The notes beneath the pieces were generated by a model. It saw only the letters and a list, made by a program, of their open reading frames with translations, was not told the DNA's origin and ran no database searches. A DNA stretch of 64,000 nt from Naegleria gruberi (taxonomy: Eukaryota), in NCBI GenBank assembly GCA_000004985.1, contig GG738899.1. The stretch is one strand, 5' to 3'. Below, piece after piece: positions 36,388-38,146 of this stretch; the stretch's first letter is position 1; the number at the start of each line of letters is the position of its first letter. The position numbers were made by a program, and so were the translations under genes.

Positions 36388-38146
36388 ATGATGATGATGA
36401 ATCAAAAGAGAATATCTGCCGTTAGATCATTGATGAAGAATGTTAATGGCAAGAATTCCATCATCATGATGAATAAGTGTTCCAATATGATGTTGATGAA
36501 GAATAATTATCACTCGAGTTTGTATCAATCGATGAAGGTTGTTCATCCGGTTGAGATTGCTGCTACACCAGAGAATAAGGATACTTCACTTCCAACTGCT
36601 GAGGAAATTCAATTTGTTGCTCCTATTGAAGATGGTGGTTTGTCGTCGACTGCTCATGTTTCCTTCTATGATATTGAAGAAGCCTTTGCAAGAATTAGTA
36701 AGTTTTGTATATATTGTTCATCAATTCTCATCATATCATGTAATTTATACATTGTTTATACTTCTTTCCATCATCATGTTGCTAATTTAAATCTTCTTCA
36801 TCATCTTTCATTTATAGAACCACTTTTACCTCCAACCCCACTGCAAGAATCAGCTGTTTTAACACAAGAAATATTCGGACAACAAAAGAACGTTTTGCAT
36901 CCTAGAAAGGTCTTTTTGAAATATGAAAATAAGCACATGACTGGAAGTTTTAAGGAAAGAGGAGCTATTAACAAGTTAGCTGCTTTGGATACAGAACAAA
37001 GAAAGAGAGGTGTTGTTGCCTCATCTGCTGGTAACCAGTAAGTATATTATCTAAATTCATTTTAGTTAAATTTCAATAGTGCTCAAGGTATGTTGAAAAT
37101 GCATTTTGTGGAGTTTTTAACTGTTTTTTAACTGTTTGATCAATATTTGGAATACAGCTGTTGCTTATCATGCTATGAGACTTGGAATTAAGGCTACTAT
37201 TTGTATGCCTGTGAATAGTCCACTTTCTAAAGTGGCCGGAACAAAGAGATATGGAGCTGAAGTAGTATTATTCGGAGAAAGTGTCGATGATGCCTATCAA
37301 GAAGCTTTGAGAATTAAGGAGGCAGAAAATAGAGTTCTCGTCCATCCATTCAACGATGACGCCATTATTGCTGGCCAAGGAACATTAGGTTTGGAACTTT
37401 TGGAACAATCACCATATATTGACACAATCGTGTGTCCAATTGGTGGAGGTGGTCTTATCAGTGGTGTTGCCATTGCTTGTAAGACTGTTAATCCAAAGAT
37501 TAAGGTTTATGGTGTTCAAACTGAAAATGTTCCTTCCATGGTTACTGCCAAAAAGAATAGAAAATCCACAACTGTTCCTTTCCATGCTACCATTGCTGAT
37601 GGTATTGCTGTTAGAAGAATTGGTGATTTGACATTCCCAATTATTGATCAATTTGTCGATGATATTGTTACTGTCACGGAAAGTGAAATTGCTCACGCTG
37701 TTCTCGTCCTTTTGGAAAGAGAAAAGACTCTCGTAGAAGGAGCTGGTGCTACTCCAGTTGCTGCCCTTTTGAGTGGAAAGTTAGAGGAAGTGACAAAGAC
37801 AAGCAGTGGTTCTCATCGTGTCTGTTGTATACTTTCTGGAGGTAATATGGATGTTGGTACTGTTAGAGATATTATCGATAGAGGTTTGGCACAAAGTGGT
37901 CGTTTAGTTCGTTTGAGAACTGTCGTTCCTGACGTTCCAGGTCAATTAGCTAAGGTTTTGACACTTTTGGGAGAACTTAAAGTCAACATTAGAGAAGTTG
38001 ACCACGAAAGAAATTACAATGTTCCTGTTGGTTATACTGGTACTGTTATTACATGCCAAACAAGAGGTTTTGAACACATTGAAAATGTCAAGAATAGTCT
38101 CATTCAACACGGTTTCAGTTTTGAAATGATTCAGTGTCATGATTAA
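36388..38146 (+). CDS. threonine dehydratase / serine-threonine ammonia-lyase (PLP fold type II) with C-terminal ACT-like regulatory domain, 4 exons including an 8-nt microexon
   Basis: Exons are 36388-36697, 36818-37037, 37080-37087 (tgctcaag) and 37158-38146. Introns are 120, 42 and 70 nt. The PLP-lysine motif is GSFKERGA. Only the microexon model restores the conserved [26 protein letters not shown] (SAGNHAQGVA) block, and every single-intron model breaks the frame. GGGGLISG glycine-rich loop is present. The C-terminal segment of about 90 aa is ACT-like. N-terminal MMMMNQKRISAVRSLMK may be a targeting peptide. Confidence 0.7.

Follow-up and report, generated by a model that had tools for sequence, protein, structure and literature searches.

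A probable 8-nt coding microexon in the threonine ammonia-lyase gene of Naegleria gruberi

Animal microexons are mostly multiples of three nucleotides (nt) in length, alternative and tissue-specific, and lie between long introns, with intronic enhancers and SRRM4 involved; those of neurons, reportedly treated by Irimia et al. in 2014, are said to span 3-27 nt and to be SRRM4-dependent. Microexons of the size considered here are well described and are a known source of misannotation (PMC8831610), and in plants detained introns, spliced after transcription, are more frequent on their flanks (Yu et al. 2022, PMC8831610). Here we describe a threonine dehydratase (threonine ammonia-lyase) gene in a stretch of the Naegleria gruberi genome (the window, 64 kb analysed as a whole, with a G+C content of ~35% throughout), the third exon of which is very probably a constitutive 8-nt coding microexon between two short spliceosomal introns. 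At 8 nt this exon falls within the definition of microexons as internal exons of ≤15 nt (broader definitions extend up to 27-51 nt).

Gene structure and the cofactor-site block

The gene lies on the + strand at 36388-38146 and has four exons by sequence reading and translation; when joined (36388-36697 + 36818-37037 + 37080-37087 + 37158-38146) these give an open reading frame (ORF) of 1527 nt encoding 508 amino acids and a stop. Its parts are as follows.

36388-36697, + strand: exon 1, 310 nt, beginning ATGATGATGATG, coding for a species-specific N-terminal extension and ending in phase 1 (...ARI + A)
36698-36817, + strand: intron 1, 120 nt, GTAAGT...TTATAG
36818-37037, + strand: exon 2, 220 nt, from TGSFKERGA (the Schiff-base lysine block) to VVASSAGN plus the CA of a His codon
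37038-37079, + strand: intron A, 42 nt, GTAAGT...CAATAG, phase 2
37080-37087, + strand: probable microexon, 8 nt, TGCTCAAG, which completes the His codon (third base), carries those for Ala and Gln and opens the one for the next Ala (first base)
37088-37157, + strand: intron B, 70 nt, GTATGT...ATACAG, phase 1
37158-38146, + strand: last exon, 989 nt with the TAA stop (38144-38146) counted in, coding for the remainder of the PALP domain with its IGGGGLISG loop and then for the C-terminal ACT domain

The 8-nt exon was first proposed in a sequence-only reading of this DNA, of which all coordinates and splice hexamers proved exact to the base when the sequence was re-read. That reading had exon 2 ending in phase 2 at 37037 (...GCT GGT AAC CA) and the acceptor at 37157 requiring phase 1, and both are confirmed by the spliced 1527-nt ORF, the last exon opening CT GTT GCT TAT CAT from 37158. 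Inclusion of the 8 nt would turn phase 2 into phase 1 and supply His-Ala-Gln plus the opening base of the following Ala codon (the H-A-Q-A of SAGNHAQA), and the block that it would complete is the invariant S-A-G-N-H-A-Q-[GA] of the pyridoxal phosphate (PLP) site. The exon is bounded by a canonical acceptor and donor (CAATAG/TGCTCAAG/GTATGT, slashes marking exon borders), and the same AG and GT recur in a second N. gruberi strain as well as in N. fowleri and N. lovaniensis, although the introns themselves have diverged.

Family assignment of the product is unambiguous by sequence. The model protein scores 445.4 bits against TIGR01127 (ilvA_1Cterm, an equivalog model for threonine ammonia-lyase with one C-terminal regulatory domain; cutoff 378.75), and 446.6 bits against the related model NF005600, which is below that model's own cutoff of 496. 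PF00291 (PALP) covers residues 108-407 with 262.8 bits and PF01842 (ACT) residues 431-490 with 29.6 bits (cutoff 27), while the best solved relative is Salmonella TdcB (2gn0), the alignment with which runs through VVACSAGNHAQGVS. The gene product is thus classed as a threonine ammonia-lyase of the single-ACT 'medium' type, with a predicted activity of converting L-threonine to 2-oxobutanoate and NH3. All three cofactor-site blocks, SFKxRG, S-x-G-N-H-[AG]-Q-[GA] and IGGGGLISG (the GGGG phosphate loop), can be read in the model protein and align to TdcB, the second being complete only when the microexon is included; the roles of single residues in such blocks are established for fold-type II PLP enzymes. 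Among the 120 best homologues, 114 carry the motif S-[AS]-G-N-[HF]-[AG]-[QL]-[GAS], and all of the closest eukaryotic homologues have exactly SAGNHAQA, the form that the microexon model predicts, which bears out the earlier claim that the 8 nt restore the PLP-site SAGNHAQ block. The Naegleria protein matches the TIGR01127 family and TdcB in its PALP fold, SFKxRG, SAGNHAQ[GA], GGGG loop and ACT domain, but differs from them in a eukaryote-specific N-terminal extension of ~90 residues and in a gene broken by three introns. The start codon at 36388 and any organellar targeting by this extension are predictions.

A chance origin of the microexon pattern is negligible. Counting both strands, the 64-kb window contains a single instance of the pattern AG/YGCNCARG/GT, at 37078; in a 120-nt intron, base composition predicts 6e-6 instances and first-order Markov simulation ~5e-5. 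The sequence-only reading had called the microexon route the only canonical path between exon 2 and the last exon, which overstated the case, as 131 GT-AG paths, or 429 GT/GC-AG paths, were found to be in frame and free of stops. Of those enumerated, the microexon path is the sole one that restores the motif, and only in this path are both donors of the strong GTAnGT form. All 429 in-frame paths were scored with a profile hidden Markov model built from 103 intron-free, bacterial-type homologues: the microexon path ranked first of the 429 (555.1 bits), followed by the next-best path (537.5 bits), while the best single-intron path (37031->37157) obtained 527.5 bits.

Conservation and intron history among relatives

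The highest-ranking protein matches are from N. fowleri (81% identity; FDP41_007410, P0001, VFQX01000003.1, locus L001) and N. lovaniensis (74%; C9374_005265, P0003, PYSW02000023.1, locus L002), and both deposited proteins carry the microexon-encoded block. Exact splice mapping reproduces these two proteins only with an 8-nt exon (L001:3585-3592 and L002:3704-3711), meaning that the orthologous microexon is already within two public gene models, both from annotations made with BRAKER1 and RNA-seq (PMC6831594, PMC6125883). We also compared a Naegleria-like metagenome contig (L003, ENA ERZ27315067) and a second N. gruberi strain, represented by L004 (ENA, ERZ929261) and L005 (Logan), both from run ERR1078381 of project PRJEB11402. 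The sequence TGCTCAAG is 100% identical in the four taxa and in the second N. gruberi strain, and is flanked by AG and GT wherever intron B is present. The lengths of introns A and B vary as follows.

N. gruberi, window: intron A 42 nt, intron B 70 nt
N. gruberi, second strain (L004): intron A 42 nt, intron B 72 nt
N. fowleri (L001): intron A 46 nt, intron B 96 nt
N. lovaniensis (L002): intron A 62 nt, intron B 113 nt
L003: intron A 73 nt, intron B absent

The N. fowleri and N. lovaniensis models share with N. gruberi the 8-nt exon, its phases, the encoded block and the length of the upstream exon (220 nt in each), but differ in the introns on either side of it, which are longer and of unrelated sequence, the donor of intron B being GTAATT as against GTATGT in N. 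gruberi. N. fowleri, N. lovaniensis and L003 each have intron A at the matching codon position, with unrelated internal sequence. At the level of sequence, then, this comparison with orthologues, which the sequence-only reading had put forward as a check and which returned an identical 8-nt exon in both species, settles the microexon question. That reading had rested purely on frame and motif logic; the logic holds, and evidence from orthologues, a second strain and profile scores can now be set beside it. Its remark that microexons this small are rare needs qualifying, as coding exons of such tiny size have been well described from other lineages (PMC8831610).

In L003, where intron B is lacking, the DNA runs uninterrupted as ...AATGTAG/TGCTCAAGCTGTGGCCTACCATGCC, with TGCTCAAG joined directly to CTGTGGCCTACCATGCC to read TGCTCAAGCTGTG, so that the exon-exon junction predicted for N. 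gruberi is found in genomic DNA. The L003 protein is ~80-83% identical to those of the other three taxa over 367 aligned columns. In the heterolobosean outgroup Acrasis kona the block is coded without interruption and introns A and B are both absent.

Over the gene, identity between the window and the second N. gruberi strain is 99.5%, and the microexon shows no change. Three substitutions fall in introns A and B, two of the differing positions being in A, and B is lengthened by a 2-nt insertion; the last exon has four substitutions, every one of them synonymous. L004 and L005 are a useful independent check on the reference assembly.

Nucleotide conservation of the microexon exceeds that of its surroundings. 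Its synonymous sites (CAT, GCT, CAA) are invariant in the four taxa (3/3), as compared with 30 of 101 flanking codons for conserved residues, and 14 of the nearest 15 such codons vary (probability ~0.03). This suggests a constraint at the nucleotide level, most simply on AAG as the exonic half of the donor.

Elsewhere in the gene, an intron at the position homologous to intron 1 is present in N. fowleri (143 nt), N. lovaniensis (120 nt) and Acrasis kona. Two extra downstream introns, after residues ~261 and ~414 in N. gruberi numbering, are found in N. fowleri and N. lovaniensis but not in N. gruberi or L003, so that the intron content of the gene decreases from N. fowleri and N. lovaniensis through N. 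gruberi to L003, falling towards the 3' end. The intron distribution fits a pattern of 3'-biased intron loss, as judged from these sequences. For introns A and B the series runs from none (Acrasis) through A only (L003) to both (the three named Naegleria species). In a tree from 209 columns L003 groups with N. gruberi with 83% bootstrap support, which suggested a precise loss of intron B in L003; this idea was dropped after a 367-column alignment, in which the placement of L003 receives ~56% either way. Should L003 branch below the other three taxa, the microexon may have arisen within the genus, when intron B was gained 8 nt beyond an older intron.

Compared with that of N. fowleri, the N. 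lovaniensis gene is shifted in frame by 1 nt (L002:4540-4620) near ...AAATAGCCCTCTCACCGTG, and its deposited model ends early, at 399 amino acids with the tail PLTVYV, the ACT domain being annotated as a separate 100-amino-acid gene. This may be an indel of the long-read assembly or a real mutation. A metagenome scan with the last-exon protein for further Naegleria-like orthologues gave only bacterial homologues of ≤50% identity.

Proposed splicing and rival readings

Because Naegleria introns are short (the median in N. lovaniensis is 80 bp; PMC6125883), each intron would be recognised as a unit, with splice sites probably paired across introns (intron definition), a mode that would impose no lower limit on exon length. 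With just 8 nt between the acceptor of intron A and the donor of intron B, removal of the two introns is probably sequential, and excision of the first would make the 8-mer the end of an exon of normal size. In evolutionary terms, the microexon exists because two introns sit 8 nt apart. Judging from the sequence, either intron may leave first; two copies of TTTTTAACTG inside intron B resemble branch points and are candidates only. The junctions predicted for transcripts that include the microexon are GGTAACCATGCTCAAGCTGTTGC, TCTGCTGCTGTTGC and GCCTCATCTGCTGGTAACCATGCTCAAGCTGTTGCTTATCATGCTATG, as opposed to GCCTCATCTGCTGGTAACCACTGTTGCTTATCATGCTATG on skipping and GGTAACCATGCTCAAGCTGTT and TCTGCTGCTGTTGCTTATC for the rival splice, and the predicted intermediates are ATCTGCTGGTAACCATGCTCAAGGTATGTTGAAAAT (intron A removed, B kept) and TAAATTTCAATAGTGCTCAAGCTGTTGCTTATCATG (intron B removed, A kept).

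Several points weigh against a constitutive microexon spliced in this way. Its inclusion in N. gruberi mRNA is argued from orthology and from the L003 DNA junction, and the use of RNA-seq by BRAKER1 is documented for the two annotations as wholes, not for spliced reads at the orthologous microexons. Sequential intron definition and the order of removal draw on general knowledge of splicing. Inclusion may be constitutive or alternative, and intron B may have been gained or lost, given the two placements of L003 (83% bootstrap over 209 columns; ~56% either way over 367).

The rival that survives best, though we regard it as improbable, accepts the microexon as real and makes its inclusion alternative, skipping being an off-switch for the enzyme through a frameshift and early stop. 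By computed translation, skipping would cut the protein to 187 residues (177 or 193 if intron A or B, respectively, is retained), exon skipping has been detected generally in N. gruberi transcriptomes (PMC6142364), and the full invariance of the microexon at its three synonymous sites, when 30% of flanking codons are invariant (p ~0.03), hints at extra constraint on the nucleotides. That signal, however, comprises three sites and is explained equally well by plain splice-site constraint, AAG being the exonic part of the donor. Support for skipping at this locus comes from sequence only, the splice sites are of strong consensus (GTAAGT and AAG/GTATGT), and L003 does without intron B, so that such a switch is not essential. 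The wider proposal that the nucleotides of the microexon are constrained by splicing and serve a regulated all-or-none switch for threonine catabolism, worked by skipping, or, independently, that intron B is a datable gain should L003 be basal, is unlikely.

A single intron from a weak donor at 37031 (G/GTAACC) to the acceptor at 37157 would give VVASSA-AVAYHA and make the 8-mer a coincidence. This path uses canonical GT-AG sites and keeps the frame open, and with 527.5 bits it is the best of the single-intron alternatives, but it lies 27.6 bits under the microexon path and removes the G-N-H-A-Q of a block that is present in 114 of 114 motif-matching full-length homologues. Moreover, N. fowleri, N. 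lovaniensis and L003 have GGA AAT or GGA AAC at these codons and lack the GT of this donor, and the perfect conservation of TGCTCAAG amid diverged sequence is left unexplained. We consider a single intron very improbable.

Equally hard to credit is a reading of this N. gruberi locus as a pseudogene in decay, with a real frame problem. Neither of our protein searches returned an N. gruberi protein for the locus, which would fit decay, but a missed 8-nt exon suffices to explain such an annotation failure (PMC8831610). Every exon is open, the splice sites are all intact and the TIGR01127 equivalog cutoff is passed; in addition, the four last-exon substitutions between strains are all synonymous and the protein of P0002, a last-exon ORF call from metagenomes, is 100% identical.

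Least likely of all is an assembly or sequencing indel that gives a one-intron gene a false break in frame, the microexon being an artefact of its repair: such errors do occur, as the 1-nt frameshift elsewhere in the N. lovaniensis gene illustrates, but the reading is effectively refuted by the second-strain assemblies (L004/L005), which have the same arrangement and in which the additional 2 nt in intron B create no in-frame single intron, and by three other taxa sequenced with different technologies that have the same 8-mer and splice sites. The sequence-only reading had named as a potential refutation an indel found on resequencing that would bring a single-intron model into frame; the second strain holds no frame-restoring indel, its sole indel being the 2-nt insertion in intron B, and this test is therefore answered. 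The single-intron, pseudogene and indel readings are rejected on the evidence above.

Annotation, neighbourhood and comparison with known microexons

Three intron-free ORFs of the window exactly match N. gruberi NEG-M proteins (XP_002672193, XP_002672195 and XP_002672199), which marks the window as nuclear DNA of this species. For the dehydratase, exact look-up of the 508-residue model in a collection of 15 billion sequences found no copy, and a search of 5.8 billion sequences returned no N. gruberi protein for the locus, with matches of 323-619 amino acids for the 508-residue query and 108-337 amino acids for a 197-residue N-terminal query. We read these limited match lengths as a length filter of the search; if so, a long chimeric N. 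gruberi model is possible. The only 100% matches are prokaryote-style ORF calls of the last exon from metagenome contigs (P0002, identical to the last-exon protein). Since no N. gruberi protein surfaced though its neighbours are present, the reference annotation of this species probably misses or mangles the gene, and N. gruberi metabolic reconstructions may wrongly score threonine ammonia-lyase as absent. A literature search found no paper naming this Naegleria microexon and nothing relevant on Naegleria threonine dehydratase or threonine ammonia-lyase.

The neighbours of the dehydratase gene differ between N. gruberi, N. fowleri/N. lovaniensis and L003, indicating that local synteny is not conserved. 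In the window, the upstream gene ends at 36000-36100 (+ strand), with a C-terminus that by eye is kinase-like (...CWQTDPKLRPNIEQVIQHLQSLLT, followed by the stop). A tRNA gene lies 34 nt past the dehydratase stop on the - strand (38180-38258; Rfam RF00005, 44.2 bits, gathering score 29); its anticodon arm is unaligned with extra bases, and it is probably intron-bearing. ARAGORN reports no tRNA next to the dehydratase gene, though Rfam finds this one. The next gene downstream (38340-41422, - strand) includes a 789-amino-acid ORF at 39053-41422, and the region past this ORF, at ~38650-38900, reads by eye like the catalytic domain of a class III adenylate/guanylate cyclase.

Current understanding of splicing is unchanged by this locus. 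It does offer a clean example of a tiny exon that defeats gene prediction and is recovered by motif and frame logic with comparative genomics, together with a natural series for how short-intron eukaryotes splice tiny exons and gain or lose microexons via introns.

A close likeness is to the small coding microexons (≤15 nt) of plants, which like that of Naegleria are tiny internal exons coding for parts of conserved motifs, and which are conserved across species, often missing from reference annotation, and gained and lost over evolution. By analogy, the plant data on detained introns agree with the stepwise splicing proposed for Naegleria. The Naegleria microexon differs in belonging to another eukaryotic supergroup (Heterolobosea). 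With the neuronal microexons of animals it shares very short length and a probable need for special handling by the spliceosome. Unlike these, its 8 nt would shift the frame and appear obligatory for a functional protein, its flanking introns are very short and its host is unicellular.

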